From Alphaproteobacteria bacterium (GTDB lineage: Bacteria > Pseudomonadota > Alphaproteobacteria > Bin95), in the NCBI GenBank assembly GCA_965205265.1, contig CBDBGH010000003.1:4000001-4064000 (forward strand): 64,000 bases of DNA, written 5' to 3'. The position numbers and the translations under genes are program-made. The notes below the pieces were generated by a model. It was not told the origin of the DNA. It was given only the letters and a program-made list of their open reading frames with translations, and made no database searches. This document shows positions 6,994 through 54,049 of the stretch, one piece after another; within the stretch, counting starts at the first letter, position 1; each line of letters starts with the position of its first letter.

Positions 6994-7008
6994 GGAGGCG
7001 CCGCGCCG

Positions 7009-9153: not shown

Positions 9154-9241
9154 CGTCATACCCGGACTTGTTCCGGGTATCCATGCGGCCGTCCGGCGGA
9201 AGCGGTGGAAGGAGATACCCGGAACAAGTCCGGGTATGACG
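9154..9241. repeat. CGTC-type REP dimer
   Basis: Perfect 28-bp inverted repeat CGTCATACCCGGACTTGTTCCGGGTATC (9154-9181 / 9214-9241), each arm itself a hairpin. Confidence 0.85.
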
Positions 9242-9365
9242 GAGGGGACGTGACGGAGGGGACGTTGAGGTATGACGGAAGAAATGTCGTCGGTCTCCCC
9301 CGTCAACCTATCTTTGTAATCTCCAACATGACATATCCGCTGCCTCTCCCGCGCCCCGCGCCCGC

Positions 9366-12104: not shown

Positions 12105-12281
12105 GCCGGGTTTGTAGAGCGGTTCCGCGAAAGAGCGAAACGGGTTCGGTATCCAGGTACGGCTCAGCAGCCCGGGGCGGCGTGGCAGCCCGCTTGAGAT
12201 ATGCCCGGGATAGTTTGTAAAGCCTCGTTGTTCTCTGCCAAATTGCAGGCGCGCTGGAATGGCGGCGACCGGAGGAGATTC

Positions 12282-12753
12282 ATGCGTTTCACGGCAGCAG
12301 CGGCGCTTCTGTTTCTTGCTGCGTGTGTCACCATCGAAGACCCGCCCCGGCCTGCTACCGTGACCGCTCTTCTCAAGACAGATACCGATAGCGGCATTCC
12401 TCGACGCAAGCTGAGCCGCGAGAGAACGAACAAAACAGATCAGCATGGAAATCATCAACGAAGGGGCCCCCACTCTTCTTTCGCGACTTCTCCCTACGGT
12501 CGAATCCTGCGAAACTGAAATCGAAGTGACCACGCGCGATGAACTGAACCGCCGAGACCGGCGCTACAAATCGCCCACCGAAGTCGAGGCGATAGTCCGA
12601 TCGCGCCGGAACCCCAACCTGCTACAACCGAAAGACCTTCCATACCGCCAGAAACCGGGACTCAGCGCCGACCTCAAAGCACTGATGGAGCGCAACAGAC
12701 TGATAGACCTCGAACGACGCAAACAGCGCACCCGGCGCACGACAGAGACATAA
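12282..12753 (+). pseudogene. Putative frameshifted lipoprotein
   Basis: RBS GGAGGAG, lipobox LAAC; frame appears to continue into ORF 12445-12753 after the AACAAAAC run; lower GC than flanks. Confidence 0.4.
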
Positions 12754-13248
12754 AATGGGCCCTCGTCGCGAAGGCTGTCGGTGTCGATCCGCCGGCCGGT
12801 CCGGTGCGGTTCGTACATCCTTCCGAGGTTTTCGTCATCGGAAAGAAGGCGCCAGAGGACGGCCGGGACGTAGAGAAGGCAGTTTCGATCCTGAATGCGG
12901 TTCTGCCGCTGTCACATCGCATCCATTTCGACCGAACAGCGTCCAAAGGCGCAGAACCGGGCGCGCCTCGCGAGGGCGTTGTGCTTGTCGGCTTCCTTCC
13001 ACGGGAGGAGTGGTCTCCTGAATTACAGAAACGCCCCCTTCTCGCGCCGGGTCCGGATTCCGTCGGACTCGCACTGCCCTTCCAGCCGCTCGGCAAGCCC
13101 ATTCATCGCATCGAGGGCGGCATCATACTGGCCGATTCCGCTCATATCAGAGGCAATCCAGGGACGTGCGGAACGTCGTTGGCCTGCTTTGCAGCCGGGC
13201 CGGCAACCTGTAGGTTGCGCCCGCCCCCGCTCCGGAGCCGCCTGTCCC

Positions 13249-39796: not shown

Positions 39797-40894
39797 ATGC
39801 CGACACCGCGCCCCAACCTCTCCATCGACGCCGAACGCCTCCGGGCCGCGCTCGACCGCTCCTCCGAGATCGGCGCCGGTCCCCGGGGCGGGCTGCGGCG
39901 CCTCGCGCTCTCCGACAGCGACGGGGAGATGCGCGACCAATTCGTGGATTGGTGCAAGGCCGCCGGCTGCCGGGTGACGGTGGACGCCGCGGGCAGCATC
40001 TTCGCCCGGCGCGCGGGCCGGGAGGACGGCCTGCCGCCGGTCATGATCGGCAGCCATCTCGACAGCCAGGCGTCGGGCGGACGCTTCGACGGGGTGCTGG
40101 GCGTGCTCGCCGGGCTGGAGGTCCTGCGCACGCTCGAGGACAACGGCATCGTCACGAAGCGGCCCGTCGAGGTCGTCAACTGGACCAATGAGGAGGGCGC
40201 GCGCTTCGCCCCGCCCATGGCCGCATCGCGGGTCTTCGCGGGCCTCGCGACCGTGGAGTGGCTGCACGACCTGACCGACGATGACGGCATGCGCTATGGC
40301 GACGAGCTCCGGCGGATCGGCTATCTGGGCGAAGCGCCGGTCGGGGGCCGCGAACTCGATTCCTATTTCGAGCTGCATATCGAGCAGGACTCCCTGCTGG
40401 AGGAAGCGGGCGTGTCGGTCGGCGTGGTGACTGGCGGCTATGCGAGCCATGCGCTCAACTGCGTCTTCCGCGGCGAGTGCGCCCATACCGGGCCGACAGA
40501 GATGAAGAAACGCCGGAATGCGATGATGGGCGCGGCCTATTTCCTCGCCGCCGTCAACGACATCGGCTGGGAGTACGAACCCGTGGGGCGCACCTCCGCC
40601 TCGCGGATGCAGATCTGGCCGAACCGCTTCGGCATCCTGCCGGAATACGCCGAGGTGACCGTGGACATGCGCCACACGGACCGCGCGGTGACCGACGAGA
40701 TGGTGGAGAAGACGCGCGCGGCGCTGGCGCGAGCCGCCGGGAGGGCGCAGGTCGAGGCTGAGGTCACCGCCGAGTGGACCTTCGGCGACGAGGCGTTCGA
40801 CCCCGAATGCACCGGCCTCGTGCGGCGGGCGGCCGAAGCGCGCGGCACCGCCTGCATGGACATGCGCAGCATCGCCGGCCACGACGCCTATTAC
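39797..40894 (+). pseudogene. N-carbamoyl-amino acid amidohydrolase (M20/hydantoinase-carbamoylase family), 5' part, interrupted
   Basis: GSHLDS, GRFDG, NEEGARF, ELHIEQ, AGHDAYY then abrupt junction at ATTAC. Confidence 0.92.
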
Positions 40895-41286
40895 CCGAAA
40901 TACGACAGAAGCTGGTTGCGGAGGTAGCACCGGTTCACATTGAGCGTTCCGGGTTTCCAGACATGCGCGTATCGCTCGAACACGGCCTCGGCTACGACCT
41001 CGAAGAGCATCTCCTCCGGCCGCACGGGTGCAGTCTCGCCCTTTCGGATTGCAGCGAGCGTCTCGATTGCATGGGACTTCGCCTCGGCGACGTTCGTGTT
41101 GGCGGCGTTGCCGATGAGTTTCCAGATGCGCTCGCCGCGATGCTGGCTCTGGATGAAAAAGCGTTTCCCGCCTGCGGGCAGGATGCGCACACCGAAGCCC
41201 CTGAGCCTGGCGTCCCGAACGTCATAGGCGGTCTTGCGCGGCCGCAACGCCTTGACGAGCGCGTCGGTTAGAGCGATCTTGGGCAT
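40891..41286 (-). pseudogene. Truncated tyrosine integrase (arm-DNA-binding N-terminal domain)
   Basis: LTDALVKALRP...VRDARLRGFGVRILPAGGKRF; stop codon is supplied by the unit/host junction; no catalytic domain. Confidence 0.82.
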
Positions 41287-41457
41287 GGTCTTCTCCCGGT
41301 TCCAGTGGCAATCGGGGAGCCGGAAGCTTCAACTCTGGCTCCGTGATCGCTACGTTTTCGGGAGATAAAACGACGCTATTTCAAATAGTTAGCACCGAAG
41401 GTGCGCTGTTGCGGTGTGACGATTTGGAATAGAGTCTCCCCAATCTACGGAGAGAAT

Positions 41458-43716
41458 TTGCCCCACTACGCACATAGCAGCGATCGGGACGAGTCGGAGT
41501 GGCATTCGCTGCGCGAGCATCTGATCGAAACCGGCGCACGAGCGTCCGGATTTCTCGAACCTGTGGGCTGTGGAGAGCTGGCGCAAACAGCCGGGCTCTT
41601 GCACGACCTCGGGAAATACAGCCGAGAATTTCAAGCACGACTGCGCGGCGGCCCTCCTTGCGACCATTCGACCGCGGGCGCCAGGGTTGCAATCGAAAGA
41701 TACGGAAATAGCGACGCGCGCAGAGCATCGCCCGGAAAGATGCTCGCCTTTGCAATTGCGGGTCACCATGCAGGCTTAGCCGATGGCGTAAACGGAACGG
41801 AGCCTCGGGCGCTGGCCGACCGACTGCAAGCCGTCATTCCGGAAATAGCCCCGGTATGGCAGCAGGACCTGAGCCTTCCCCAGCTTGCGCCGCCTCCGTT
41901 GAAACCGCGCGACAGGGAAATGGCCGGTTTCTGTGCGGCTTTCGCGACCCGCATGCTCTTCTCGGCGCTCGTGGACGCCGACTTTCTCGACACCGAAGCC
42001 TGGTATGCCGGTTGCGAAGGCCATCCGGCTTTACGTGGACATCATCCTCCGCTTGCCGGGCTTCTGGATCGTCTGGATGCCTATCTCAATGCGTTGATGG
42101 CGAGTGCTGACGATACCGAAGTTAACCGGGTGCGCTGTAGGGTTCTGGAGCGGGCCCGTGCGAAGGCGGCCGAAGCGCCGGGACTGTTCACCTTCACTGT
42201 GCCCACGGGCGGAGGAAAGACGCTTTCGTCGCTGGCCTTCGCCCTTGAGCATGCTGTGCGCCATGATCTGGCGCGTGTGATCTACGTCATTCCCTATACG
42301 AGCATCATCGACCAGACAACCCGCGTGTTCCGAGAAGCACTCGGAGCGGGAGACGGGGACCTGGCCGATTTTGTCGTCGAACATCACAGTGCTTTCGACG
42401 AAGAACGGGCCCGGAACCGGGAGGCCCGGGACAAGCTGCGGCTCGCCATGGAAAATTGGGATGCGCCGATAGTTGTCACCACCGCAGTCCAGTTCTTCGA
42501 GAGCCTGTTCTCCAACAGACCTTCCCGCTGCCGCAAGCTGCACAACATTGCGAACAGCATCGTCATCCTCGACGAAGCGCAGACTCTGCCCTTGGCATTG
42601 CTGCGGCCTTGCGTTGCCGCGCTCGATGAGCTTGTCCGGAACTGGAAGGCGAGCATCGTGCTGTGTACGGCCACCCAGCCGGCGCTCGCGGCGACGGACG
42701 GTTTCGTTGGTGGATTGACGGGATTGAGGGAGATTGCACCTGAACCGGCCGATCTGCATCGGCGTCTGCAACGCACCCGGATACGCCAGGAGGGAATGGT
42801 AACGGACGTGGAACTGGGCGAAAGGTTGTGCGCCGTGCCGCAATCGCTTTGCATCCTGAACACGCGCCGGCATGCGCGCGAACTCTTCGAAATGATCCGT
42901 CAGGCAACCGGAAGTGTTCATCTGAGCACCTTGATGTGCGCGGCGCACCGGGGCGAGGTGCTGCAAACAGTCCGCCACCGCCTTGCCGAAGGCGAAGCGG
43001 TGCGCCTGGTCGCCACGTCCCTGATCGAGGCGGGCGTCGATGTGGATTTTCCGGTTGTCTGGCGTGCAGAAGCCGGCCTCGAATCGATCGTGCAGGCTGC
43101 GGGTCGATGCAATCGGGAAGGCAAGGCGGCGCTGGGCGATGTCTTCGTGTTCGAGCCTGCAGAATCCGAGGGGCGGCGGCCTCCCGGCGACGTGTCCAAG
43201 CGAGCCGATGCCGCACGCCGTGTCATGCGGCATCGCGACGACCCGGCGATGCCGGAGGCGGTCCGCTCGTATTTTCAGGACGTGTACTGGATCGAAGGCG
43301 GTGGACTGGATCGGAAAGACATTCTCCGCGCTTTTCGTGAGCGCGCGAGGAGTTTCGATTTTCCCTTCGCAACCGTGGCCAGGGACTTCCGCATGATCGA
43401 AACGGGTATGGTCCCGATCATCGTTCCTTGCCGTTATGGCGCGCAATCACCGCCTAGGCTTCGAAGAGGAGACTGCCCCAGTGAGCCTGAATCCCGAGGA
43501 GAGAAACCCGGCCTACCGGCTCGGGCGCTTGTTTGCCGTTTACGAAGGGCTGCAGCGCTCAGCCCTCGGGAGCATCAACGCGACAATCAAGGATCGTTAT
43601 TTCGGGGCGGCATCGGCGACGCCGGCATCGGTTTTTCCCTTGCTGGAGCGGAATTCCGCTCATCATCTGTCCTCGTTGCGCAAGGGCGGCAAGGGCGGTC
43701 TTGCACATTGGTTTGA
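41458..43716 (+). pseudogene. cas3: Type I-C Cas3 (HD nuclease-helicase); native sequence ends at about 43430, followed by an out-of-frame tail
   Basis: HYAHS, LLHDLGK, GHHAGL, DADFLD, PTGGGKT, DEAQ, QAAGRCNR; TTG start after GGAGAG. Confidence 0.88.
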
Positions 43717-43891
43717 CGCCGAGATCGACGCCATTCTCTCGGGAGTCGATACGGCGTTCCCGCGCAGCTTCGGGATTGAAGACCAGGGACGGTTCGCTCT
43801 CGGCTACCACCATCAACGAGCGCAGAAGCAGCGCAATGCCGATCCTCAGGACGATTACCCCGAAAACCGCACCGAAGCGGAGGACCGATAA
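43481..43891 (+). CDS. cas8c: C-terminal remnant of cas8c, equal to the Cas11 small-subunit reading frame
   Basis: VSLNPEERNPAYRLGRLFAVYE...IKDRYFGAASATP...QGRFALGYHHQ; internal RBS GAGGAG 43466-71 and GTG 43481. Confidence 0.8.
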   Translation: MSLNPEERNPAYRLGRLFAVYEGLQRSALGSINATIKDRYFGAASATPASVFPLLERNSAHHLSSLRKGGKGGLAHWFDAEIDAILSGVDTAFPRSFGIEDQGRFALGYHHQRAQKQRNADPQDDYPENRTEAEDR

Positions 43892-44827
43892 GTGACTGCC
43901 ATCGAGAACCGTTACGATTTCGTCTATCTGTTCGACGTCGCCAACGGCAATCCGAACGGCGATCCGGATGCCGGCAATCTGCCTCGCCTCGATCCGGAGA
44001 CCAATCAGGGACTGGTCTCCGACGTTTCGCTGAAACGCAAGGTGCGCAACTACGTCGCTCTGGCGAAAGGGAACGAGGCAGGGCACGAAATTTTCGTCTC
44101 GGAGCGCGCCATCCTCGAACTCAAGCAAAAGCGCGCCTGGGACGCGGTGATTCCAGAAGCGACCGACAAGGACCGCGAGCGGCTGCCCAAGGACGAACGG
44201 AAGGCGCGCGAATTGACTCGCTGGATGTGCGCCAATTTCTTCGATATCCGGGCATTCGGGGCGGTCATGTCGACGAAGGGTGCCAATTGCGGCCAGGTCC
44301 GCGGCCCGGTGCAGTTCGCCTTTGCCCGTTCGATCGAACCGATCCTGCCCCTGGAGATATCCATCACCCGGATGGCGACCACCACGGCTGCCGATGCCGA
44401 CCGGCAAGGCGATATCCGCACGATGGGCCGCAAGCATATCGTGCCCTACGGCCTCTTTCGCGCTCATGGTTATGTTTCCGCCTGTCTGGCCGGAGACGGC
44501 GGCAAGGGTACCGGGTTCTCCGAGGACGATCTCGAACTGCTTTGGGAAGCGCTGGAGCGGATGTTCGACCACGACCGGTCGGCAGCCCGCGGCGAAATGG
44601 CGGCGCGGCGCCTGATTATCTTCCGCCACGAGAGCAAGCTCGGTAACGCGCCGGCTCACAGGCTGTTCGACCGGGTATCGGTGAAACGCGTTCATGACGG
44701 CGAAGAATACGAGCCGGGAGATCGGAGGACGCATAACCTGCCGCCCGCGCGGGCCTGGAGCGACTATGCCGTGCAGGTCGACGCTGGTGACATGCCTGCA
44801 GGAGTGGAGATCGTCGAGAGAATTTGA
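43892..44827 (+). CDS. cas7: Cas7c (Csd2)
   Basis: NRYDFVYLFDVANGNPNGDPDAGNLPR, VRGPVQF, HDRSAARG. Confidence 0.96.
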   Translation: MTAIENRYDFVYLFDVANGNPNGDPDAGNLPRLDPETNQGLVSDVSLKRKVRNYVALAKGNEAGHEIFVSERAILELKQKRAWDAVIPEATDKDRERLPKDERKARELTRWMCANFFDIRAFGAVMSTKGANCGQVRGPVQFAFARSIEPILPLEISITRMATTTAADADRQGDIRTMGRKHIVPYGLFRAHGYVSACLAGDGGKGTGFSEDDLELLWEALERMFDHDRSAARGEMAARRLIIFRHESKLGNAPAHRLFDRVSVKRVHDGEEYEPGDRRTHNLPPARAWSDYAVQVDAGDMPAGVEIVERI

Positions 44828-44830
44828 TCG

Positions 44831-45475
44831 ATGATGACGTCCCTCGATTTACCGATGGTTGCCGAGGACGACCTTGTTCCGATCTCGGCGCTCCAGCATA
44901 TGCTCTACTGTCCCAGGCAGTGCGCACTGATCCATGTCGAACGACATTGGCAAGAGAATGCCTATACAGCCGAAGGGCGCGTCCTGCATCGGCGGGTCGA
45001 TACCGGCGGCGGCGAGCAACGCAAGAGCATTCGGATAGAGCGCAGCGTGGCGCTGCGCTCGTTGCGCCTTGGCCTGTTCGGCATCGCCGATATTGTCGAG
45101 ATACATGCTGGTGGTACGCCTTATCCGATCGAATACAAGCGCGGGCGCCCGAAGGCGCACCGGGCCGACGAGGCGCAACTGTGCGCCCAGGCCCTCTGTC
45201 TGGAGGAGATGCTGGAAAGGTCGGTTGCGGAGGGCGCCCTGTTCTACGGCGCGGAGCGACGGCGAACGACAGTCTGCTTCAACGGCGAATTGCGGGCGCT
45301 TACCGAACGACTGGCCTCCGACACGCGCCGCATGATCGCGGCAAGCGAATTGCCCGATGCGGAATACAGTCTCAAGAAATGCACCGCATGTTCGCTGCAG
45401 GACGTGTGCCAGCCCCTACGCCCCCGCAAGCCGGGCAACGTGGATCTATGGCTGGCCCGGGCACTGGAAGAGTAG
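44831..45475 (+). CDS. cas4: Cas4
   Basis: ISALQHMLYCPRQ, GIADIVE, PIEYKRG, QLCAQALCLEEM, C-terminal CxxCS...C. Confidence 0.95.
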   Translation: MMTSLDLPMVAEDDLVPISALQHMLYCPRQCALIHVERHWQENAYTAEGRVLHRRVDTGGGEQRKSIRIERSVALRSLRLGLFGIADIVEIHAGGTPYPIEYKRGRPKAHRADEAQLCAQALCLEEMLERSVAEGALFYGAERRRTTVCFNGELRALTERLASDTRRMIAASELPDAEYSLKKCTACSLQDVCQPLRPRKPGNVDLWLARALEE

Positions 45476-45479
45476 TCCG

Positions 45480-46526
45480 CTGACCGTACGCCGTCACCTG
45501 AATACGCTCTACGTCTCTACCGAGAACGCCTGGCTCCGAAAGGACGGCGAGAATGTCGTCATCAGCATCGAAGACGCCGAACGCGGTCGTGCGCCCCTGC
45601 ACCTGTTGGGCGGCATCGTCTGCTTCGGAGCCGTCGGAGTGTCTCCGGCGTTGATGGGGCATTGCGCCGAACTGGGCGTGAAAATCTCGTTCATGGGCCG
45701 TAACGGCCGGTTCCTCGCCCGGGTCGAAGGACCCGTTTCCGGCAATGTGCTGTTGAGGCGGGCCCAGTATCGCATTGCGGACGACCCCGAAGCTGTCCTC
45801 GCCCTGGCGCGCAATCTGGTTGTCGGTAAGGTCTCGAACCAGCGCACCGTGCTTCACCGTGCGCTCCGGGACCATGCGGCGCGAATGACTCAAGAAGCGC
45901 AAAGCCGTCTGGAAGAGACCGCGCGCCGCCTGAAGGACGTTGTCCGCCGCGCCGTCCGCCCGGACTCGGCAGACGGTCTGCGCGGCCTCGAAGGAGAAGC
46001 TGCCCGTCTGTACTACGGGACTTTCGAATACCTCGTCAGGCGCGATGACACTGTGTTTGCTTTCCCGCGACGGTCCCGCCGTCCGCCGCTCGACCCCATG
46101 AACGCGCTGCTCTCGTTTCTGTATGCCCTTTTGGCGAACGACTGCCGCTCGACGCTGGAAACTACGGGATTGGACCCCGCGGTAGGATTTCTGCATCGGG
46201 AACGTCCCGGCCGTCCGAGCCTGGCTCTCGATCTCATGGAGGAGTTGCGTCCCGTCCTGGCGGACAGGGTAGCCCTGTCTCTGGTTAACCGTCGTCAACT
46301 GGGCTCGGCCGATTTCGAAACGGCGGTGAGTGGCGCTGTCTCCCTGTCGGATGACGCGCGCAAGGCTGTACTGACCGCCTACCAGGAGCGCAAGAGAACC
46401 GAACTGACGCACCCCTTCCTCAAGGAGAAGACAACCTTGGGTCTGACACCATTTATCCAGGCAACCCTGCTTGCCCGGCGATTGAGAGGCGATCTGGATG
46501 GCTATCCGCCGTTCGTCTGGAGGTAG
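45480..46526 (+). CDS. cas1: Type I-C Cas1 (non-canonical start)
   Basis: RRHLNTLYV, GNVLLRRAQY, LRGLEGEAA, RPPLDPMNALLSF, SLALDLMEELR, YPPFVWR. Confidence 0.93.
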   Translation: MTVRRHLNTLYVSTENAWLRKDGENVVISIEDAERGRAPLHLLGGIVCFGAVGVSPALMGHCAELGVKISFMGRNGRFLARVEGPVSGNVLLRRAQYRIADDPEAVLALARNLVVGKVSNQRTVLHRALRDHAARMTQEAQSRLEETARRLKDVVRRAVRPDSADGLRGLEGEAARLYYGTFEYLVRRDDTVFAFPRRSRRPPLDPMNALLSFLYALLANDCRSTLETTGLDPAVGFLHRERPGRPSLALDLMEELRPVLADRVALSLVNRRQLGSADFETAVSGAVSLSDDARKAVLTAYQERKRTELTHPFLKEKTTLGLTPFIQATLLARRLRGDLDGYPPFVWR

Positions 46527-46534
46527 GAACAGCA

Positions 46535-46825
46535 ATGCTGATGCTGGTCACCTATGATGTCGCGACCGGCGACGCGGCCGGCCGCCGCCGCCTCCGGCGT
46601 GTGGCGCGGCTCTGTCAGGACTTTGGACAACGGGTGCAGTATTCCGTGTTCGAGTGCCAGGTCGATGCCGCGCAGTGGACGGCGCTTCGGGCCCGGTTAC
46701 TCTCGGAGATAGACGAAAAAGCGGATAGTCTGCGCTTCTATCGGCTGGGCGCCAACTGGCGCGGGCGCGTCGAGCATATCGGCGCAAAGAACTCGTACGA
46801 TCCAGACGGCCCGATGATTTTCTGA
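46535..46825 (+). CDS. cas2: Cas2
   Basis: MLMLVTYDV, GQRVQYSVFEC, DSLRFY. Confidence 0.96.
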   Translation: MLMLVTYDVATGDAAGRRRLRRVARLCQDFGQRVQYSVFECQVDAAQWTALRARLLSEIDEKADSLRFYRLGANWRGRVEHIGAKNSYDPDGPMIF

Positions 46826-47012
46826 CACCATGCAGCGCGAACCCCAAGCGAGCGTGAATTCCTCGGCGGGTTCGCGTTCGCCGCAACGTGTTGATTTCAT
46901 GCTACAGTTAGAAGCAGGCTTCAAGTGGAATCCAACCGTGCCCAGCCTTGGAACTCAGGTTCGCGGAAATGCTCGAATTCCGTGTTGTTTGACAACAGTA
47001 TAGATTGGCGAG
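46826..47012 (+). promoter_or_regulatory. CRISPR leader
   Basis: Between cas2 and repeat 1; CGCGAACC...GGTTCGCG inverted motifs typical of I-C leaders; AT-rich patches. Confidence 0.8.
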
Positions 47013-47572
47013 GTCGCCCCCCGCGCGGGGGGCGCGGATTGAAACGGGTCCGACCCGCCCCTTGACCGGCGGGGCCTGGTCGCCCCCCGCGCGGGGGGCG
47101 CGGATTGAAACAGAAAACAGGACGGGCGGGACGCCCATCGCCGCCGTCGCCCCCCGCGCGGGGGGCGCGGATTGAAACGCGTAGCGCATGACATCGGCGG
47201 AAATCGTGCCGGTCGCCCCCCGCGCGGGGGGCGCGGATTGAAACCGTACACCGCTGAATTCGTGGCGAGCGCGATCTCGTCGCCCCCCGCGCGGGGGGCG
47301 CGGATTGAAACTCGCGGTATGACTCTCGAATTCGCGATGCAGATAGTCGCCCCCCGCGCGGGGGGCGCGGATTGAAACTGAAAGCATTCGGGATCGCTGA
47401 CGGCTTTGTGACGTCGCCCCCCGCGCGGGGGGCGCGGATTGAAACCCTTATTCAATCAGTGCGCACCGAGGGCGTCAAGTCGCCCCCCGCGCGGGGGTGC
47501 ACGTCCTGATTTTGCGAGGTTGAGAAATGCCATGGTTTCGCCACGATATCTGTTTCTTATATTTGGGGACAG

Positions 47573-48004
47573 ATGGAGGCGGACATGGCCAGGACCGATC
47601 ACGACGGCCTCGTCGAACAGCGTGGCGAGCTGCTGCGGGAGATTGCGGGCATCGGCGACCTCCGTCAGGGTTCGCTCAGGGCACAGTACCGCAAGTGCGG
47701 CAAACCGAACTGCCATTGCGCGGTCGAGGGGGCGCAGGGGCATGGCCCCTACTGGTTGTTGACTTGGCCGGACAGGGAGACAGGGAAGTCCCGCGGCCGC
47801 ACCGTTCCCGCCGACGCCATTGAGGGAACGCGGGCGCAGATCGCGGAATACCAGCGGCTTCGCGGTCTGGTGCGCGCGCTTGTCGAGGTCAGCGGCCGGA
47901 TATGCGATGCCAGGCTGGACGCGGACAAGCCGGCCGCGCCGGGAAAAAGGGGGGTCTCGACGCAGCGATCGCGGAGGAGGTCGAGGCCGAGGTCGAGTGG
48001 CTGA
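47573..48004 (+). CDS. IS ORF1 (DUF6788-like Zn-binding protein)
   Basis: GSLRAQYRKCGKPNCHC...HGPYW. Confidence 0.8.
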   Translation: MEADMARTDHDGLVEQRGELLREIAGIGDLRQGSLRAQYRKCGKPNCHCAVEGAQGHGPYWLLTWPDRETGKSRGRTVPADAIEGTRAQIAEYQRLRGLVRALVEVSGRICDARLDADKPAAPGKRGVSTQRSRRRSRPRSSG

Positions 48005-49284
48005 TCGGCGCGGGCGTCGTCGATGACTTCCAGGCGATCGAGATCGAAGCGCGGCGGGTTGCGTTGCAGATCATGGGGCAGGCCGTCGCCCACAGGCTCA
48101 ATGCCGACCGTTCCGACAACCGGGGACCGTGGCTGTCGTGTGCGTGCGGCGGCGAGGCGCGCTTCGCCGGCCGCCGGCCCAAGACCTTCACCACCGCTCT
48201 CGGCCCTCTGACGCTGGAGCGCGCCTGGTATCACTGCGACCGTTGCCACCGCGGCTTCAGCCCGCGTGATCGAACCCTCGGCATGCAAGATACTTTCCTC
48301 TCACCGGCGGCGCTGCGCATGATCGGCGTTGCTGCTGCCCGTACCAGCTTCGAGGGCTCCAGCGCCCTGTTGCGCGAACTGGCAGGCCTGGCTGTCGCGC
48401 CGAAGACGGTCGAACGCCATGCCGAGGCGCTCGGGCGAGAGATCGCAGGCGACGAATGCCGCGTGATCGAACCCGAGCCGTCCGACGCCCCCACCCTCTA
48501 TCTCGGCCTCGACGGCACCGGCGTGCCGGCGCGCAAGACCGAGGTCGAGGGCCGCGCGGGCAAGCAGCCCGACGGCTCCGCCAGCACCCGCGAGGCCAAG
48601 CTCGCCGTCGTGTGGTCGGCGGAGACCGTCGACAGGGAGGGGCGTCCGGTGCGCGACCCCGGCTCCGCCACCTACAACGCCGCCATCGAATCCATCGCCA
48701 CCCGCGAGTTCGACCCCGAGCCCGCGCCCTTCGCCCGGCGTGTCATCCGCGAGGCCGAACGCCGCGGCTTCGACACGGCCGAGCGCCGGGTCATCCTCGG
48801 CGACGGCGCGCCGTGGATCTGGAACTTCGCCGATGAGCACTTCCCCGACGCCATCCAGATCGTCGACATCTTCCATGCCAAGGGCCACCTGTTCGACGCA
48901 GCCAAGGCGATCTACGGGACCGGCAGCGAGATCGGTGAGCGATGGGCCGGGAAGCGGCGCGAGGAACTCGACGAGGGCCGCGTCGACGAGGTGATCGCCG
49001 CCCTCAAGGGCCATGCCGAAACTTGCGAGAACGCCCGCAAGAACGCCGAGTATTTCACCAACAACCGCGAGCGCATGAACTACCCGAAGTTCCGCGCGAT
49101 GGGCTTGTGCGTGGCCAGCGGCGTGGTCGAGGGCGGCTGCAAGAACATCGTCGGCGCCCGCCTCAAGCAGGGAGGCATGCGCTGGACCGTCAACGGCGCC
49201 AACGCCATCATCGCCCTGCGCTGCGCCGTCGAGAGCAATCGCTTCGACGACTTCTGGGAACGACGAGCCGGCGCAATACCATGA
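47941..49284 (+). CDS. ISKra4-family DDE transposase, probably expressed by -1 frameshift from ORF1
   Basis: LDGTGVP, LGDGAPWIW, VDIFHAKGHL, SGVVEGGCK, RLKQGGMRW. Confidence 0.88.
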   Translation, partial: GKKGGLDAAIAEEVEAEVEWLIGAGVVDDFQAIEIEARRVALQIMGQAVAHRLNADRSDNRGPWLSCACGGEARFAGRRPKTFTTALGPLTLERAWYHCDRCHRGFSPRDRTLGMQDTFLSPAALRMIGVAAARTSFEGSSALLRELAGLAVAPKTVERHAEALGREIAGDECRVIEPEPSDAPTLYLGLDGTGVPARKTEVEGRAGKQPDGSASTREAKLAVVWSAETVDREGRPVRDPGSATYNAAIESIATREFDPEPAPFARRVIREAERRGFDTAERRVILGDGAPWIWNFADEHFPDAIQIVDIFHAKGHLFDAAKAIYGTGSEIGERWAGKRREELDEGRVDEVIAALKGHAETCENARKNAEYFTNNRERMNYPKFRAMGLCVASGVVEGGCKNIVGARLKQGGMRWTVNGANAIIALRCAVESNRFDDFWERRAGAIP

Positions 49285-50138
49285 ATCTCACAAATGCGAC
49301 GTGCACCCCCCGCGCGGGGGGCGCGGATTGAAACGCCGATGACGATCACGGCGACATTGACGGCGGAAGGTCGCCCCCCGCGCGGGGGGCGCGGATTGAA
49401 ACGGGCGCGCCGCCCGGACAGCCGGTGCTGGCCATGTCGCCCCCCGCGCGGGGGGCGCGGATTGAAACCCCATGGCCAAGCGGCAGGAAACCCTCCTCAT
49501 GAGGTCGCCCCCCGCGCGGGGGGCGCGGATTGAAACATTTATACGCGCGATGGCGGGCGGTCGTGGAACCGGTCGCCCCCCGCGCGGGGGGCGCGGATTG
49601 AAACAGCCTCGATCAGCGCCGGGTGCTGGCGCAGGGGGTCGCCCCCCGCGCGGGGGGCGCGGATTGAAACATTGCCCAGCAGTGATCGGTGTGCGGAAAA
49701 CACCGGTCGCCCCCCGCGCGGGGGGCGCGGATTGAAACTGGTGCTGGAAACCGGCATCGATCCTGAGGCGCGTCGCCCCCCGCGCGGGGGGCGCGGATTG
49801 AAACGCTTTGCGTCCGGCGACGAATGCGGCGAATGGGAAAGTCGCCCCCCGCGCGGGGGGCGCGGATTGAAACGACACGACCATCTACGCCCGCCATCCG
49901 CTGTTTGGTCGCCCCCCGCGCGGGGGGCGCGGATTGAAACAGCCTCGATCAGCGCCGGGTGCTGGCGCAGGGGGTCGCCCCCCGCGCGGGGGGCGCGGAT
50001 TGAAACCTCCTTCCACGGGATATCCTCCCTGGAAGCTTTCGTCGCCCCCCGCGCGGGGGGCGCGGATTGAAACATGGGCCCCGGCGAGAAAATGGTGCTG
50101 CGGACTGGTCGCCCCCCGCGCGGGGGGCGCGGATTGAA

Positions 50139-51833
50139 CCTAAATCCGGCGGTTGGAGGGCGTGATCGCCCTCTCGGCGCGGTTGGAATGGTCGATTTCG
50201 GGTTCGATTTCAGCACGCTGGCGCGGCCCGAGGGGGCGGCAGCCAGGGCTGACGGCCCGGCTCGCGGCCGTGGAGGTATTTTTTGAGCGCTTCGGCGAGG
50301 ATCCGGCGCCAGCGATCCTCGGCGCTCAACTGCTCCGCACTTTGCCTCACGGTCCGGAAGAAGCCGGCGATCCGCCGCAGGGCAGCAGCCACCGCCTCGC
50401 GCCGCCCGTGGTGGGAGGTCACCGTCAGCCGGGGCTGGCCGGCGTGCCAGGTCTGGCGGGCGACGCCGTGCAGCAGCAGCGGCCGGCTGGTGATCGCCTC
50501 GCGGTGGCGCTCGGGACCGGCGAGGCGGACGAAGAGGCTCCACCAGTCGTAGATGAGCGCGATCAGCCGGGCCATGTGGCGGCAGCGCGTCAGGTCGTGC
50601 GTGGTGAAGCCTCCCCAGCCCCACTGGTTCTTCAACTCGTCGAAGCCGTTCTCCGCGTCGGCCCGGTCGCGGTAGAGCTGGGCCACAGAGCGCACCTCCA
50701 GATCGAGCGAGGTGGCCAGCACCGCGAACTCCCATACCCCGGTGCCGGGCTGCGCCTCGGTCCAGAACAGCTCGCCCTGGGCGGTGTCGCCGCGCGTCAG
50801 CGCCAGTGTCGCCGGAAGCCGGCGGCGCAGAACCACGGCCCGGCGCAACCGGCTCCAGCCCTGCAAGCGCAGATCGGCCCCGATCCCCTGCCAGCCCTGG
50901 CCCGCATCCTCCCAGCCGTCCCGCGCCATCTGCCGCTCGGCAAGCCGGCGCGCGCCCCTGGTCAGGCGCAGCTTGAACAGATAGTCCAGACCCGCCGCCT
51001 CGCACGACGCCATGTTGCCCTCGCTGCCCCAGTCCTTGTCCCCCCGCACCAGGCGCGGCCAGCGGTCCCGGCCGAGACGGTCCAGCAAAGCCCACAAGGA
51101 CGGCGCCGCCCGGTTCGAGCGGTGATGATTGCCCGGCGCAACCTCGACATCCAGAACCAGCCGCGTGCCCGCCATCAGGAACGCATGGCAGGCGTGCGAG
51201 GGACGGCCCGGCTTCTTCGGGTTGTAGCTCACCACCGCCCCCTCCTGGCGGCCGTAGAGCGGCTTGATCGTCGTGTCGCAGTCCAGAACCCAAGGCTCGC
51301 TCAGCAGCGGGCGGACCGTGTCGTCGAGATGGCCCTGAAGCCACGTTGTGCCCTCATCCGCCCCGGTCCGCTCCAGACCGCGCCGGACCGAATCCTCGCT
51401 CGCGACCTTGCCCATCCCCAACAGCGCCGGGTTCACCCCGTCCCCGCGCAGCGCCGTGATGTGCGCATGGCGAGACTGGCCCGCCAGAACCGAAAGCAGC
51501 ACCGTCCCCAGAACGTCCCGCTTCGAAGGCGCGTTCGGGCTCGTGTAGACGAGCGGGCAGTCCGCCACCAGCGCCTCGAAGCGACCGCTCACCTTCAGAT
51601 ATTCCGCGAAGAACGCCAGATGGCCAAGCGGCGTCACCGCCGCATCCGGGTCCCATTCGACGTGAACCGTGCCGCCGAAGGTGTCCACCTTCACAGCCTC
51701 GCAGGCGAGGTCCCGCACAGCGCCAGAACCCTCACCCGCAGGGTGACCCTCTCGGCCCCATCCAAATCCGCTCATACCCGCAGTCTACAAGGGCCACGGC
51801 GAATCCAGACCCCGATCAACTGCCGGATTTAGG
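50139..51833 (-). mobile_element. IS1380-family insertion sequence (1695 bp)
   Basis: 17-bp IRs CCTAAATCCGGCGGTTG (50139-55) and CCTAAATCCGGCAGTTG (reverse complement, 51817-33), 1 mismatch. Confidence 0.92.
50210..51775 (-). CDS. IS1380-family DDE transposase
   Basis: LDCDTTIKPLYGRQEGA, VRGDKDWG, YRDRADAENGFDELK. Confidence 0.9.
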   Translation of the reverse strand: MSGFGWGREGHPAGEGSGAVRDLACEAVKVDTFGGTVHVEWDPDAAVTPLGHLAFFAEYLKVSGRFEALVADCPLVYTSPNAPSKRDVLGTVLLSVLAGQSRHAHITALRGDGVNPALLGMGKVASEDSVRRGLERTGADEGTTWLQGHLDDTVRPLLSEPWVLDCDTTIKPLYGRQEGAVVSYNPKKPGRPSHACHAFLMAGTRLVLDVEVAPGNHHRSNRAAPSLWALLDRLGRDRWPRLVRGDKDWGSEGNMASCEAAGLDYLFKLRLTRGARRLAERQMARDGWEDAGQGWQGIGADLRLQGWSRLRRAVVLRRRLPATLALTRGDTAQGELFWTEAQPGTGVWEFAVLATSLDLEVRSVAQLYRDRADAENGFDELKNQWGWGGFTTHDLTRCRHMARLIALIYDWWSLFVRLAGPERHREAITSRPLLLHGVARQTWHAGQPRLTVTSHHGRREAVAAALRRIAGFFRTVRQSAEQLSAEDRWRRILAEALKKYLHGREPGRQPWLPPPRAAPAC

Positions 51834-51838
51834 ATTAC

Positions 51839-51985
51839 ATCTCGCGCATCGCGCCGACGGCGCTCATATTCAGCCCCTGCATCGGCGGCATCACCCACAA
51901 CGAGGCCGAAGACATCCCCTGGGAGCCGACCGTCGAGGCGGTCAATGTGCTGCTCGACGCCGTGCTTGCCCGCGCGGACCGGTAG
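51839..51985 (+). pseudogene. Carbamoylase 3' part (48 codons plus stop)
   Basis: ISRIAPTALIFSPCIGGITHNEAEDIPW...ARADR*, the conserved C-terminus continuing AGHDAYY. Confidence 0.92.
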
Positions 51986-51996
51986 GGCGCCCGGGC

Positions 51997-52401
51997 CTAC
52001 AGGTAGTTCGAGACCTCGACGAGATTGCCGTCCGGGTCGCGGAAATAGACCGAGCGGATGGGGCCGAGCGCGCCGCTGCGCTCCGAGGGCGGGGTTTCGA
52101 TTTCGACGCCGCAGGCTTCCAGATGCGCGATGACCTCCTCCAGCGGCGTTTCCGCGATGAGGCAGAAATCCTCGCCGCCGCAGCGCGGATCGCGGGCGCG
52201 GTACCAGTCCGTATTGTCGGGATGCAGGTTGATCTTCTGCCGGCCGAAGCGGAGCGCCTTGCGCACGATGCCGTCTTGGCCGATGCCGTCCCGTCCGAAG
52301 CTGACGACCTCCATGCCGAGCGCCTTCGCGTAGAAGTCGCATGTGGCCTCGACATCCTTCACCCGCATCACGAAATGGTCCAGCCGCTCTATCCGTATCA
52401 T
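51997..52401 (-). CDS. VOC/glyoxalase family protein
   Basis: RLDHFV, QKINLH, SVYFRDPDGNLVE. Confidence 0.92.
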   Translation of the reverse strand: MIRIERLDHFVMRVKDVEATCDFYAKALGMEVVSFGRDGIGQDGIVRKALRFGRQKINLHPDNTDWYRARDPRCGGEDFCLIAETPLEEVIAHLEACGVEIETPPSERSGALGPIRSVYFRDPDGNLVEVSNYL

Positions 52402-52414
52402 CGCCGCCTCCGCT

Positions 52415-54049
52415 CTACTCCGGATTGCTTTCGAACCCGTCCAGCCGGTCGCGCTCGGCCAGTTCGGCGTTGCGCTCGGCGACCGGGCCGTAACCGCCCC
52501 CGCCGCCGGTGCGGACGATGAGCCGGTCGCCGCGGCTGAGCGGGAATTGCTGCTTCGAGCGGAGCGGAATCCGCTGTCCGCCGCGCTCGACGAGGGTTTC
52601 CGCCTTCGCGCCGGGGCCGCCGCCGAACAGGCCTTGCGCGGCGAAGCGGAACCGGTCTCCGTAAGTCGCGAAGGTCACGCCGTCGTCGAGAATCCGGTAG
52701 ATGCGCTGGAAGCCCATGCCGCCGCGCTGGCGCCCGCCGCCGCCCGAGGCAGCGCGCAGGCTGTAATCCTCGACCCGGAAGAACGGATAGTCGCTCTCCA
52801 TCGCCTCGATCGGGATATTCGAGCAGTTGGACAGCATCGAGTCCACCGCGTCGCAGCCGTCATTGCCGGGGCCCGCCCCGTAGCCGCCGCCGAAGATTTC
52901 CAGATAGATGTTGTAGCCGCGATCATGCTTGTGGCTGATGCAGCTCACCGTGGTCGTGTCGAAGCCGGGCGCGATCACCCTCTCCGGCACCGCGCCGGCA
53001 AGCGCATTCATCACCGCATTCACCACCCGGTAGCTCGGCAGCAGGCGGGCCCGCACCGGCGCGGGCGGGCGCGGATTGACGAGGCAGCCATAGGGCGCGG
53101 TCACCGAAATCGCGCGTTCCGCGCCCTCGTTGAACGGGATGTCGGGGTCCGTCAGCACCGCCTTGATGCAGGCGATGGCCGAGGAGACGGTGGAGGCGAA
53201 GGGGCTGTTCATGTTGGTGGCGACCTGCGGGGCGGTGCCCTCGAAATCCACCGCGATCGAATCCCCTTCGATGGTGAGCAGGGCCCGGACCGGCACGGGG
53301 TCCTCGCCCCGGCCGTCATCGTCGAGCCACGCCTCGCCCCGGTAGCTGCCGTCGGGCGCGGCCGCAATCGCGGCCCGGATGCGCCGCTCGGAATAGTCGA
53401 GCATTTCGTCCATGGCCGCGAACACCGTGTCCCGCCCGAATTTGCGGCAGAGGCCCTTCAGCCGTTCGCCGCCCACGGCATTGGCGGCGAATTGCGCGTT
53501 GATGTCGCCGATGGTGGCCTCCGGCATGCGCACATTGGCGCGCACCAGCCGCTCGAACGGGCCACCGTTCCAGTCCCGCTTGACCGACCAGCGGCTCGGC
53601 GGGAAGGTGATGCCCTCCTCGTGCACGTCGCCGGCATCCGGATTGAGGCCGGGCGCGCCGCCGCCGAGGTCTATGTGGTGGACCACCGTGGCCGTCACCC
53701 CGACCAGCGCGCCCTCCAGGAAGATCGGCGAGAACAGGAAGATGTCCGGCAGGTGCTGGCCGCCGGCATAGGGGTCGTTGTTGACGAGGAAATCCCCCTC
53801 CCGGAGCGTTTCCAGCGGGTGGTGCTCCAGGCAGGCGCGGAAGGTGTGCGTGACGGAGCCGAGCTGGATGGGGATGAGGTCGGCCTGGGCCACGACCCGC
53901 CCCTTGCGGTCGAGAATGGCGGCCGAGCAGTCCTGGGCCTCGCGCACCACCGGGGAATGGGCCGAGCGGATGAGCTTGATCCCCATCTCGTCGGCGGCCG
54001 CGACCAGCGCCTGGGTGATGACGGCCTGATCGACCGGCGAAACCTTCAT
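52415..54049 (-). CDS. Hydantoinase B/oxoprolinase family protein
   Basis: RSAHSPVVRE, NDPYAGGQHLPD, HHIDLGG, GGGGGYG. Confidence 0.92.
   Translation of the reverse strand: MKVSPVDQAVITQALVAAADEMGIKLIRSAHSPVVREAQDCSAAILDRKGRVVAQADLIPIQLGSVTHTFRACLEHHPLETLREGDFLVNNDPYAGGQHLPDIFLFSPIFLEGALVGVTATVVHHIDLGGGAPGLNPDAGDVHEEGITFPPSRWSVKRDWNGGPFERLVRANVRMPEATIGDINAQFAANAVGGERLKGLCRKFGRDTVFAAMDEMLDYSERRIRAAIAAAPDGSYRGEAWLDDDGRGEDPVPVRALLTIEGDSIAVDFEGTAPQVATNMNSPFASTVSSAIACIKAVLTDPDIPFNEGAERAISVTAPYGCLVNPRPPAPVRARLLPSYRVVNAVMNALAGAVPERVIAPGFDTTTVSCISHKHDRGYNIYLEIFGGGYGAGPGNDGCDAVDSMLSNCSNIPIEAMESDYPFFRVEDYSLRAASGGGGRQRGGMGFQRIYRILDDGVTFATYGDRFRFAAQGLFGGGPGAKAETLVERGGQRIPLRSKQQFPLSRGDRLIVRTGGGGGYGPVAERNAELAERDRLDGFESNPE

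Follow-up and report, generated by a model that had tools for sequence, protein, structure and literature searches.

How did a CRISPR-Cas locus come to split an M20 amidohydrolase gene? In the window, by which we mean the whole 64,000-nucleotide stretch analysed here, a 10,939-bp unit (40895-51833) interrupts this gene and is bounded on both sides by a 5-bp duplication, ATTAC, which can be extended on neither side. The sequence suggests, with a probability of roughly 0.9, that the unit is a transposable module, or transposition unit, which a single copy of an IS1380-like element created. It has the parts of such a unit, namely a single IS whose IRL abuts the target duplication (TSD), cargo beyond the IRR, an IRR-like far end and an empty site of one pentamer.

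The interrupted gene and the two ends of the unit

The gene, the duplicated pentamers and the elements that bound the unit are as follows.

39797-40894, plus strand: M20 amidohydrolase gene (hydantoinase/carbamoylase family), 5' part, 366 codons; Pfam Peptidase_M20, TIGR01879 and gapless orthologue alignment
40890-40894, no strand: TSD ATTAC, left copy; a single pentamer here in 13/13 orthologous loci
40895-40908, plus strand: IRR-like surrogate for the right end, CCGAAATACGACAG, with which the unit starts on the left; 10/14 against IRR and 11/14 against IRL, terminal CC kept
50139-51833, minus strand: IS1380-like IS, 1,695 bp, with IRR at 50139-50152, transposase gene at 50210-51775 and IRL at 51820-51833
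51834-51838, no strand: TSD ATTAC, right copy; a single pentamer at the empty site in 13/13 orthologous loci
51839-51985, plus strand: M20 amidohydrolase gene, 3' part, 48 codons and stop; conceptual join with the 5' part

Joining 39797-40894 to 51839 onward, which the earlier note had already seen to restore an in-frame protein, gives an open 414-aa frame (...IAGHDAYY|ISRIAPTA...) that aligns over all 414 residues, in one gapless block, with 13 of 13 orthologues at 86-95% identity. The amidohydrolase scores 285 bits against NCBIfam TIGR01879 (cut-off 204), with allantoate amidohydrolase as the best subfamily. Among the genus's 16 other genomes, 13 supply these orthologues and the remaining three yielded paralogue-level matches only. 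In every one of the 13 loci the gene is uninterrupted and one pentamer lies between the flanks (ATTAC in nine, ACTAC in three, ACTAT in one), which is the empty site that the note had proposed to look for after seeing ATTAC on both sides of the insert. Four more distant loci (L021-L024) are also continuous, with 3-11 nt left between the flanks by local alignment.

The right boundary is the last base of the IRL (...CCGGATTTAGG|ATTAC at 51833/51834). The IS has one 521-codon frame, and its size and its IRs, which match at 13/14, 16/20 and 20/25 positions, are those of the IS1380 family. The transposase matches Pfam PF13701 (DDE_Tnp_1_4) at 60.6 bits, above the cut-off of 34.7, and NCBIfam NF033539 over positions 8-418 of 419 at 142.6 bits (E 1.3e-41), below the curated IS1380 cut-off of 180; its identity to IS1380-family transposases annotated on plasmids is just 22-26%. 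Judging from these matches, it is a distant IS1380-family relative, which counts against the reading of the unit as a transposable module. The earlier identification of the right end as the IRL of an intact IS1380 stands for the end and has to be qualified for the family.

Five copies of the IS occur in the genome (G000). The other four all have perfect 5-bp TSDs (TTGAA, TTCAC, TTGAT and TTTAT), and an 88%-identical relative in genome G005 has a 5-bp TSD at eight of nine copies, so that the AT-rich 5-bp duplications that the earlier note had suggested seeking are found; the TSDs average 28% G+C (genome, 68%). The 5-bp length in both genomes falls within the 4-5 bp given for the IS1380 family in the available part of PMC12116815. 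As had been claimed, the IRR of the window copy has no matching TSD: TTGAA lies at its IRR side and ATTAC at its IRL side, and it is the sole such copy in G000. No second IS1380-like copy is present within 40000-53000. The cargo, 40895-50138, lies beyond the IRR and downstream of the transposase gene (51775 to 50210, minus strand), which is the geometry of ISEcp1 units and of transposable modules (TMos).

At the left boundary (ATTAC|CCGAAATACGACAG), the terminal 14-mer matches the IRR, CCTAAATCCGGCGG (50139-50152), at 10 of 14 positions and the IRL (reverse complement of 51820-51833) at 11 of 14; recomputation returned the figures first reported for a degenerate IR. Across the genome, 6.8e-4 of positions reach 10/14 against the IRR and 5.8e-5 reach 11/14 against the IRL, and such low frequencies make a chance match at a single fixed boundary position unlikely. 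Counting against the surrogate end, three other sites in the cargo equal or beat it in matching the IRR, at 43486 (11/14), 43987 and 48297 (10/14 each).

The cargo and a second type I-C locus

The cargo comprises the following features.

40895-41286, minus strand: tyrosine integrase gene, 5' fragment, 131 codons counting a stop that the TSD provides; Pfam Arm-DNA-bind_3, catalytic domain missing
41287-41417, no strand: integrase-side arm and core (TTGCGGTGT) running straight into the cas3-side arm; putative attP-type junction, from homology of the arm to the attR arm of G005 and G006
41458-43430, plus strand: cas3, truncated after codon 657 of 751; Pfam HD, DEAD and Cas3 C-terminal domains
43430-43431, no strand: point at which 2,342 bp present in locus 2 are deleted, namely the cas3 3' end, cas5 and the 5' four fifths of cas8c
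43436-43891, plus strand: cas8c 3' fragment, 151-codon frame; Pfam Cas_Csd1 433-557 of 559, TIGR01863 453-580 of 588, PADLOC Cas8c
43892-44827, plus strand: cas7 (Csd2); Pfam Cas_Cas7 334.6 bits, TIGR02589 363.6 bits
44831-45475, plus strand: cas4; Pfam Cas_Cas4 80.1 bits
45357-46526, plus strand: cas1; Pfam Cas_Cas1 343.3 bits, profile match from codon 51
46535-46825, plus strand: cas2; Pfam CRISPR_Cas2 91.2 bits
46826-47012, plus strand: predicted leader region, 54% G+C, judged by composition and by lying between cas2 and the first repeat
47013-50138, plus strand: CRISPR array, 20 repeats of 33 bp and 19 spacers, of which spacers 10-18 represent 8 types common to locus 2
47495-49308, plus strand: ISKra4-family IS in repeat 8; NCBIfam NF033572 294.6 bits, 9-bp TSD CCCGCGCGG

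The earlier description of some 9.2 kb of array and cas genes as cargo holds, with corrections to its content. The cas set is incomplete: cas3 is truncated, its frame running out of register beyond codon 657 to 43716, cas5 is missing, and only the last ~130 codons of cas8c, which correspond to the small subunit Cas11c, precede cas7, cas4, cas1, cas2 and the array. One contig of run X24 spans the deletion junction. The array also holds the ISKra4-family IS, which splits repeat 8, has its TSD at 47486-47494 and 49309-49317 and is present ten more times elsewhere in the genome; the IS1380-like element interrupts repeat 20 after ...GGATTGAA. Finally, the leftmost 392 bp of the unit are the 5' part of an integrase gene. 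An overlapping frame at 44824-45483 has no profile match; 44831-45475 is cas4.

A second locus (locus 2) lies 0.8 Mb from the window, and by their profile matches the cas genes of both loci are type I-C. Neither holds the complete set of cas3, cas5c, cas8c, cas7, cas4, cas1, cas2 and array. Locus 2 has a full-length cas3, cas5c, a cas8c truncated at position 494 of 588, with an IS1634-family element at this gene, and an array, and profile searches and PADLOC found no cas7, cas4, cas1 or cas2 there. The genome has its sole full-length cas3 and its sole cas5 and cas8c (the last without its C-terminal part) in locus 2, and its sole cas11c-like frame, cas7, cas4, cas1 and cas2 in the window. Positions 41413-43430 are 100% identical to C3:3244630-3246647, and these 2,018 bp with a further 136 bp make 2,154 bp of identical cas3/cas8c DNA, or 3.85 kb with the IS.

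The IS copy of locus 2 (C3:3252560-3254254), 100% identical to that of the window over 1,695 bp, sits in a repeat of the same sequence and at the same position as the window's repeat 20. It is flanked by TTGAA at both ends, and beyond it the array continues for 10 more repeats and a degenerate terminal one, so that the first step predicted by the earlier note, the landing of the IS in a donor array, is visible here. This TTGAA-flanked copy, the identical cas DNA and the 8 common spacer types mark locus 2 as a donor-type locus in the same genome. Directly beside the IS, only the cut repeat is common to both loci; the adjoining spacer is private in the window and a triplicated common one in locus 2, which counts against locus 2 as direct donor and would require later array rearrangements. 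The present locus 2 also has no integrase beside cas3, which counts against a simple donor role and suggests a donor with a different left context (an island in circular or tandem form, or one that lay next to it and has since been lost).

The integrase fragment is identical to the integrase frames of G005 and G006 at 102 of its first 130 residues, and these frames continue for 244 residues past it, giving about 374 aa counted from where the alignment begins; G000 has no complete copy of this integrase. Its arm is homologous to the attR arm beside the G005 and G006 integrases (79% identical at the nucleotide level). In six relatives attB reads ...GGTGGAAGGTGT|AGGTCATC; attR in G005 and G006 joins the integrase arm to AGGTCATC; attL in locus 2 has its left side as in attB, joined to GACGATTTGG-cas3; and the window joins the integrase arm to GACGATTTGG-cas3, the attP type. 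Identity between window and locus 2 begins at GGTGT (41413), the crossover point, which in the relatives lies within a polysaccharide-deacetylase gene. On these alignments, the unit appears to carry an attP-type junction of an integrase island. G000 lacks the attR of the window's integrase; at C3:3188248 the remaining half of the target gene is found in inverted orientation, next to unrelated DNA.

Proposed origin of the unit and its alternatives

Under the transposable-module reading, the IS would first have entered the AT-rich 3' end of a type I-C repeat, duplicating TTGAA, the state preserved in locus 2. In a later transposition, the transposase would have paired the true IRL with the IRR-like 14-mer about 9.2 kb past the true IRR, in the integrase gene. 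The whole stretch, comprising the IS, the leader-side array, cas2-cas1-cas4-cas7-cas8c-cas5-cas3, the att junction and the first 130 integrase codons, would then have been inserted into the ATTAC pentamer of the amidohydrolase gene, duplicating ATTAC, while the donor retained a copy. Complementary decay of both loci would then have followed. The window would have lost 2,342 bp (the cas3 end, cas5 and most of cas8c) and gained the ISKra4-family IS; locus 2 would have lost everything from the cas8c end through cas2, the leader and the leader-proximal spacers, beside the IS1634-family element; and both arrays would have been reshuffled, each now having private spacers. The TSD, the empty site, the surrogate end, the geometry, the donor-type locus and the deletions can be read directly from the sequences, whereas we infer this order of events, a donor in locus 2's own lineage and a cas operon that was whole when it moved. 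With regard to the earlier proposal of a route for horizontal transfer of CRISPR-Cas, the one-ended move is supported, and each of the note's checks that was run favoured it; what the evidence shows is copying inside a single genome or lineage and not transfer between cells, and the moved locus is now defective.

The same mechanism acting from another cell or replicon, with a plasmid- or island-borne int-attP-cas-array-IS donor and locus 2 as sibling and not parent, is unlikely, though it deserves serious consideration. The window has an integrase fragment and an attP-type junction where locus 2 has neither, and both the missing full-length integrase and the differing IS-adjacent spacers favour an outside source, as do the composition of the cas DNA (62% G+C, genome 68%) and the absence of a I-C locus from 35 of the 36 other genomes searched of the order, which suggests that the system itself was imported. 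Against this, 3.85 kb are completely identical between the two loci, and the identical IS-repeat junction and common spacers are most simply explained by a copy made inside the lineage; moreover, no similar DNA was found among 72,556 plasmid records, and in species representatives no Cas3 comes nearer than 62-66% identity.

A two-step origin, in which the IS alone entered the amidohydrolase gene and recombination later brought 9.2 kb between TSD and IRR, is very improbable. Five near-identical IS copies and two arrays of the same repeat offer ample homology, and other rearrangements are present in the region, but homologous recombination at IS or array has no means of setting an integrase fragment, which lacks such homology, flush with the left TSD copy, where the end is IRR-like at the exact boundary and the junction contains neither a second IS nor a scar.

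As for the assembly, the earlier note had asked whether long reads span both junctions. The left junction, which lies in unique sequence, is crossed with 0 differences by contigs of 10,196, 1,127 and 3,234 letters from X19, X22 and X23 (three public runs from three studies; the assembly itself may derive from one of the runs). Across the right junction, at least 31 letters on both sides are covered in X22 only, X19 and X23 having 28 and 30 letters, respectively, on the IS side. In X19 and X23, loose ends at 41413 continue into the flank of locus 2, indicating that both loci coexist in those runs. Five IS copies, repetitive arrays and a duplicated cas3 do invite misjoining, but that the CRISPR-Cas segment was misjoined into the amidohydrolase gene through such repeats is hardly credible, given these contigs and an exact 5-bp duplication beside an IR-like end, which a misjoin would not produce.

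Relation to known mobile elements

The available parts of PMC12589106 and PMC12116815 describe one-ended transposition by ISEcp1, with 14-bp IRs, 5-bp duplications, units of variable size and imperfect IRRs having 3-12 matches to the true IRR. The IRL found here agrees with the ISEcp1 IRL printed in PMC12116815 at 8/14 positions (CCTA.AT.C..C..). ISEcp1 (ISEc9) units carry blaCTX-M, blaCMY and genes next to them; the present unit has another host, other cargo and a transposase of another lineage. TMos formed by ISPme1 and IS1247a, both of the IS1380 family, are known from Paracoccus (Alphaproteobacteria), as presented in PMC9330008 (section 7.3) and PMC3281130. IS1247 has 1,672 bp and a 5-bp direct repeat (PMC3281130, Table 2); size (1,695 bp here), TSD and geometry are alike. 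Those modules were caught experimentally on trap plasmids from plasmid DNA, whereas the present one is read from a chromosome in which donor-type locus and product are both present; its cargo is a CRISPR-Cas locus, and its transposase is distant from the family profile. TMos are difficult to identify where a conserved insertion context is lacking, as PMC3281130 points out. The present case offers a clean in-silico example, with target site, surrogate end and donor-type locus all legible in one genome.

The earlier note knew of no described case of this route for CRISPR-Cas. We likewise found no description of CRISPR-Cas as cargo of such a unit in the literature searched, although the mechanism outside resistance genes has already been described (PMC9330008 and PMC3281130, in the parts cited). 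If our reading is correct, bacterial immune loci too can be moved by a known mechanism of gene capture, and a defence system joins resistance and plasmid genes in the known cargo of IS1380-type one-ended transposition. Movement of CRISPR-Cas is usually credited to plasmids, islands and phages; here a plain IS would have accomplished it. The outward promoter of ISEcp1 drives its cargo, whereas the cas genes here point towards the IS, which therefore cannot be their promoter. CRISPR-Cas genes are also carried within transposons in the Tn7-like CASTs, in which a nuclease-deficient CRISPR effector selects the target. The present locus differs in being passive cargo, with an AT-rich pentamer as target, chosen by a DDE transposase, and with no Tn7-type genes.

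An IS hit in a CRISPR repeat may, beyond damaging the array, render a neighbouring cas operon mobile, and the complementary decay of the two copies makes it possible to test whether a type I-C system has been split between them. More speculatively, IS1380-like elements might home to the AT-rich end of CRISPR repeats and so generate single-IS mobile CRISPR-Cas modules, with selection perhaps keeping a I-C system of two half-loci working in trans; we regard this combined reading as doubtful. Were it true, immune loci would be duplicated within genomes and, after a hop to plasmids or excised islands, spread between cells. The available part of PMC10359306 describes ISs that insert in cas genes and arrays and inactivate CRISPR-Cas, with loss of immunity; that part does not describe mobilisation of a locus by an IS, and the terms 'IS1380' and 'one-ended' have 0 occurrences in it. 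Like the cases reported there, the two loci have taken three IS hits, by the IS1380-like and ISKra4-family elements in repeats and by the IS1634-family element at cas8c.

Ends of the insert

The insert at 40895-51833 interrupts an M20 amidohydrolase gene of the hydantoinase/carbamoylase family (frame 39797-40894; Pfam; TIGR01879, 285 bits), the top-scoring subfamily being allantoate amidohydrolase. The left junction (40880-40908) reads ...CACGACGCCT ATTAC / CCGAAATACGACAG... and the right junction (51820-51847) ...CTGCCGGATTTAGG / ATTAC ATCTCGCGC..., and the ATTAC duplication cannot be extended at either side. A scripted join of 39797-40894 to the sequence from 51839 onward restores the open 414-residue frame claimed in an earlier note on this DNA, which aligns as a single gapless block with the orthologue in 13 of 13 same-genus genomes that have one (86-95% identity). 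At the DNA level, the gene is intact in all of these orthologous loci, with one pentamer between the flanks (ATTAC in nine, ACTAC in three, ACTAT in one); the count leaves out three other same-genus genomes, where matches are at paralogue level only. The empty site anticipated in that note thus reduces to a single pentamer at every orthologous locus, with no exception of the kind it had named as a refutation.

Features of the insert (window coordinates)
Left end of cargo, minus strand: first 130 codons of a tyrosine integrase (Arm-DNA-bind_3)
Between integrase fragment and cas3: integrase upstream region, 126 bp
cas3, cut after codon 657 of 751
cas8c remnant, final ~130 codons
After the cas8c remnant: cas7, cas4 (44831-45475), cas1 and cas2
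Between cas2 and array: leader, 187 bp
CRISPR array: 20 repeats, 19 spacers
47486-49317 (including duplications), inside repeat 8: ISKra4-family IS with a 9-bp duplication
50139-51833, transposase frame on the minus strand: IS1380-like element, 1,695 bp, single 521-codon frame
IRR, array side of the IS1380-like element: CCTAAATCCGGCGG
IRL, amidohydrolase-gene side of the IS1380-like element: CCTAAATCCGGCAG

The frame at 44824-45483 was rejected as cas4 for lack of a family match, the overlapping 44831-45475 being cas4. The final repeat of the array ends ...GGATTGAA and runs directly into IRR, which matches IRL at 13 of 14 positions. The transposase scores over the gathering score for DDE_Tnp_1_4 (Pfam), and the NCBIfam IS1380 model spans it end to end (E 1.3e-41) at 142.6 bits, below the curated cut-off of 180; identity to annotated IS1380-family transposases on plasmids is only 22-26%. 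On this mixed evidence the element is a distant relative of IS1380, hence IS1380-like, and by sequence a borderline member of that family. What had been called an intact IS1380 is therefore an intact 1,695-bp element with both inverted repeats, but not a plain member of the family.

The genome (G000) holds five copies of this IS, all chromosomal. The four others are bounded by perfect 5-bp duplications (TTGAA, TTCAC, TTGAT and TTTAT), as are eight copies of a relative with 88% identity in the related genome G005, which has nine or more of them. Mean G+C over the 13 distinct pentamers is 28%, against 68% for the genome. Only the window copy in G000 has no repeat at its own ends, with TTGAA on the IRR side and ATTAC on the IRL side. 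The earlier note had reported the missing duplication at IRR and proposed the 5-bp length as a check on other copies, and both hold. So do its counts for a degenerate left repeat: the 14 bases abutting the left ATTAC retain the terminal CC and match IRR at 10 and IRL at 11 of 14 positions, levels reached by 6.8e-4 and 5.8e-5, respectively, of positions genome-wide. Since the duplication fixes the position of the left end, this resemblance is not due to chance. Equal or better IRR-like sites occur inside the cargo at 43486 (11/14), 43987 (10/14) and 48297 (10/14), so the choice of end did not simply follow the best or nearest match. This agrees with ISEcp1, for which the passages on surrogate ends in PMC12116815 and PMC12589106 give 3-12 shared bases of 14 and a variable distance.

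Five public sequencing runs from three studies contain every sampled word from 400 bases over the left junction; since the assembly may derive from one of them, the runs are not fully independent. Four runs were compared with the window by contigs, with 31 letters required for a crossing and stretches lacking contig cover not counted as evidence. At the left junction, X19, X22 and X23 each have contigs that run across with no difference, and a contig of X22 crosses the right junction, where X19 and X23 fall below the 31-letter threshold, with 28 and 30 letters on the IS side. X24, which holds 0.45 of the words, is thin over 40000-41250 and thus uninformative on the left junction; one of its contigs crosses the deletion junction at 43430. 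Loose ends of X19 and X23 contigs at 41413 read into the flank of a second type I-C locus of the genome (locus 2).

In every structural feature that could be tested, the insert is a transposition unit, or transposable module. In CRISPR-associated Tn7-like transposons, CRISPR has a targeting role; the window unit, in contrast, carries CRISPR-Cas passively. Its mechanism is not new, and the unit represents a known class of element with unusual cargo. One-ended transposition with 5-bp duplications, imperfect IRRs and variable unit size is described for ISEcp1 in the relevant passages of PMC12589106 and PMC12116815, and section 7.3 of PMC9330008, together with the relevant part of PMC3281130, describes it, under the term transposable modules, for ISPme1 and IS1247a of Paracoccus (IS1247, 1,672 bp with a 5-bp repeat; PMC3281130). 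The window unit belongs to the same class, known before in Alphaproteobacteria, from which its CRISPR-Cas cargo sets it apart. IS insertions that inactivate CRISPR-Cas have also been described (passage in PMC10359306); the literature searched yielded no described case of CRISPR-Cas as cargo of a one-ended IS1380-type unit. No transposase relative was found by tblastn in 80 related I-C loci (1.39 Mb), a small test of generality, and neither the IS-repeat junction nor the IS end had a match in metagenome scans.

A second one-ended unit was considered in G005 and rejected: the IS copy there that lacks a duplication is one arm of a 10.4-kb composite of two IS copies, present twice, and not a single-IS module. 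In both places (L149, G005:C1:843428-853833; L150, G005:C1:570608-581031) an inverted pair of the 88%-identical IS encloses ~7 kb, and the two composites are 99.8% identical. Outside them stand ATCAC/ATGAC and ATGAC/ATAAC, which agree with a 5-bp duplication of ATGAC only on the assumption of an inversion between the two composites.

The second type I-C locus

Locus 2 lies 0.8 Mb away on the same contig (C3). Its IS copy (C3:3252560-3254254), with 100% identity to the one in the window, interrupts a repeat identical in sequence to the one cut there, at the equivalent position (...GGATTGAA / IS / TTGAAAC...), which gives a TTGAA duplication. The landing of the IS in a donor array, postulated in the earlier note as the first step, is seen here as a simple insertion.

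Features of locus 2
cas genes: full-length cas3; cas5; cas8c cut at profile position 494 of 588
Upstream of the IS: 23 repeats; IS1634-family element without target duplication
Array beyond the IRL side: ten more repeats and a degenerate terminal one
Right of the array: another multi-copy element, found in the search for the island's extent

Window positions 41413-43430 (2,018 bp) are 100% identical to locus 2, as are 43430-43565 (136 bp), and the window lacks 2,342 bp between these two stretches. The deletion endpoints of the two loci overlap by 136 bp. The window's cas7-cas2 stretch and leader are the sole copy in the genome. Eight spacer types are common to both arrays, all on the IS side of each, in differing order and some of them duplicated; private to the window are spacers 1-9 and 19, and to locus 2 spacers 1-9, 13, 14 and 24-32.

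The simplest history is copying from an ancestral locus that bore the IS, followed by separate decay. The IS would have lain in its array, and everything from IRL to the surrogate end would have been copied as a single unit; each copy would then have undergone its own deletion, with overlapping endpoints, and both arrays would have been reshuffled through repeat recombination, with private spacers gained or kept. The finding is real and the one-ended mechanism proposed in the earlier note is supported, for a copy made within one genome or lineage. We put the probability of a donor within this genome at about 0.7 and no higher because the spacer adjoining the IS differs between the two loci and locus 2 has no integrase, both of which need later change. 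These same two differences speak for derivation of the unit from another replicon or cell, which we nevertheless consider unlikely. The moved CRISPR-Cas locus is now defective. Self-targeting was rejected as the cause of decay, as none of the 49 spacers has a good genomic match outside the arrays (nothing beyond 24-26 nt with 2-3 mismatches). On the boldest reading, which has a low probability, IS modules might be a general route by which CRISPR-Cas spreads, and the two half-loci here might form a working split system.

The losses are complementary. Full-length cas3, cas5 and the C-terminally truncated cas8c occur in locus 2 only (L006, the region holding it, 6630-13046 = G000:C3:3244630-3251046), and the cas8c 3' frame (the Cas11c-equivalent part), cas7, cas4, cas1, cas2 and the leader in the window only (compared region 41413-46825). 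A GTG preceded by GAGGAG lies at 43467-43483, ~50 nt after the end of the window deletion, and we take it to be a candidate internal start of the type I-C small subunit. In locus 2, two inverted IS1634-family elements ~9 kb apart (L006 337-1992, plus strand; 11228-12883, minus strand), with 551-residue transposase frames and the same Pfam match, bracket metabolic genes and cas3-cas5-cas8c'; the copy beside cas8c lacks a target duplication, which would fit the loss of cas7-cas2 and the leader in an IS-associated deletion. One spacer is present twice in the window (49572-49973), and one twice and one three times in locus 2 (L006 14192-14527). These duplications show repeat-mediated recombination; the adaptation genes are gone from locus 2 and still present in the window.

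The ISKra4-family IS (ends GGGTGCACGTCC...CGACGTGCACCC) makes 9-bp duplications and occurs in the window and at ten other places in G000:C3. A (T)CAAG motif ~15 nt upstream of the insertion point in 7-8 of the 11 copies, including the one in the CRISPR repeat, suggests sequence-guided target choice. About 200 bp from another copy, 82 bp (G000:C3:2788287-2788368) are 90% identical to part of the integrase upstream region (41291-41372).

The integrase junction and the island hotspot

The identity between window and locus 2 starts exactly at GGTGT (41413), the bases with which a truncated chromosomal gene breaks off in locus 2. The gene is of the polysaccharide-deacetylase family, and in six relatives it continues as ...GGTGGAAGGTGT/AGGTCATC.... 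At this point, other islands are present in the related genomes G005 and G006. Each has at its right end an integrase with 79% identity to the window fragment, next to it the same upstream arm, and after that ...GAAGGTGT/AGGTCATC. The 130-residue fragment shares 102 residues with the N-termini of these integrase frames, which continue for 244 residues further (~374 residues from the aligned start). Four putative junction types can thus be distinguished.

Putative junction types at the GGTGT point
Empty relatives (attB): left part of the gene, core, right part of the gene
Locus 2 (attL): left part of the gene, core, cas3 arm
G005 and G006 (attR): integrase arm, core, right part of the gene
Window (attP type): integrase arm, core, cas3 arm

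An integrase island with CRISPR-Cas at its edge, in excised or tandem form, may have been the source from which the module was copied; alternatively, an integrase-bearing island may formerly have adjoined cas3 and since been excised. A full-length copy of the window's integrase was not found in G000, and no native island with an integrase beside cas3 was found in searches of genus, order, family, plasmids and species representatives. Integrase relatives in the genomes, plasmids and species representatives searched are paralogues of at most 79% identity, and the closest Cas3 among species representatives is 62-66% identical. ARAGORN and Rfam (at gathering threshold) found no tRNA or RNA gene at the integrase/cas3 junction.

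At a distance of 56 kb (G000:C3:3186749-3188248), the remaining half of the deacetylase gene stands in inverted orientation; there the same core connects it to unrelated coding DNA, an arrangement that implies an inversion (~56 kb) or a second island at the site. The region is dense in IS copies. The 3' end of the deacetylase gene is an island hotspot in the genus, with different DNA at GGTGT(A) in each of G000, G005 and G006 (window 41287-41417; L006 6560-6640; loci L028, L029 and L049-L056), and the window unit keeps the attP-type junction and the genome's only remnant of the matching integrase. In 36 genomes of the order, the sole other trace of the I-C system is a set of remnants in the related genome G015 (L042), namely a cas1-cas2 stretch (G015:C1:498296-499675; 84% identity) and, distant from it, a 174-bp cas3 fragment (G015:C1:4472035-4472208; 89% identity).
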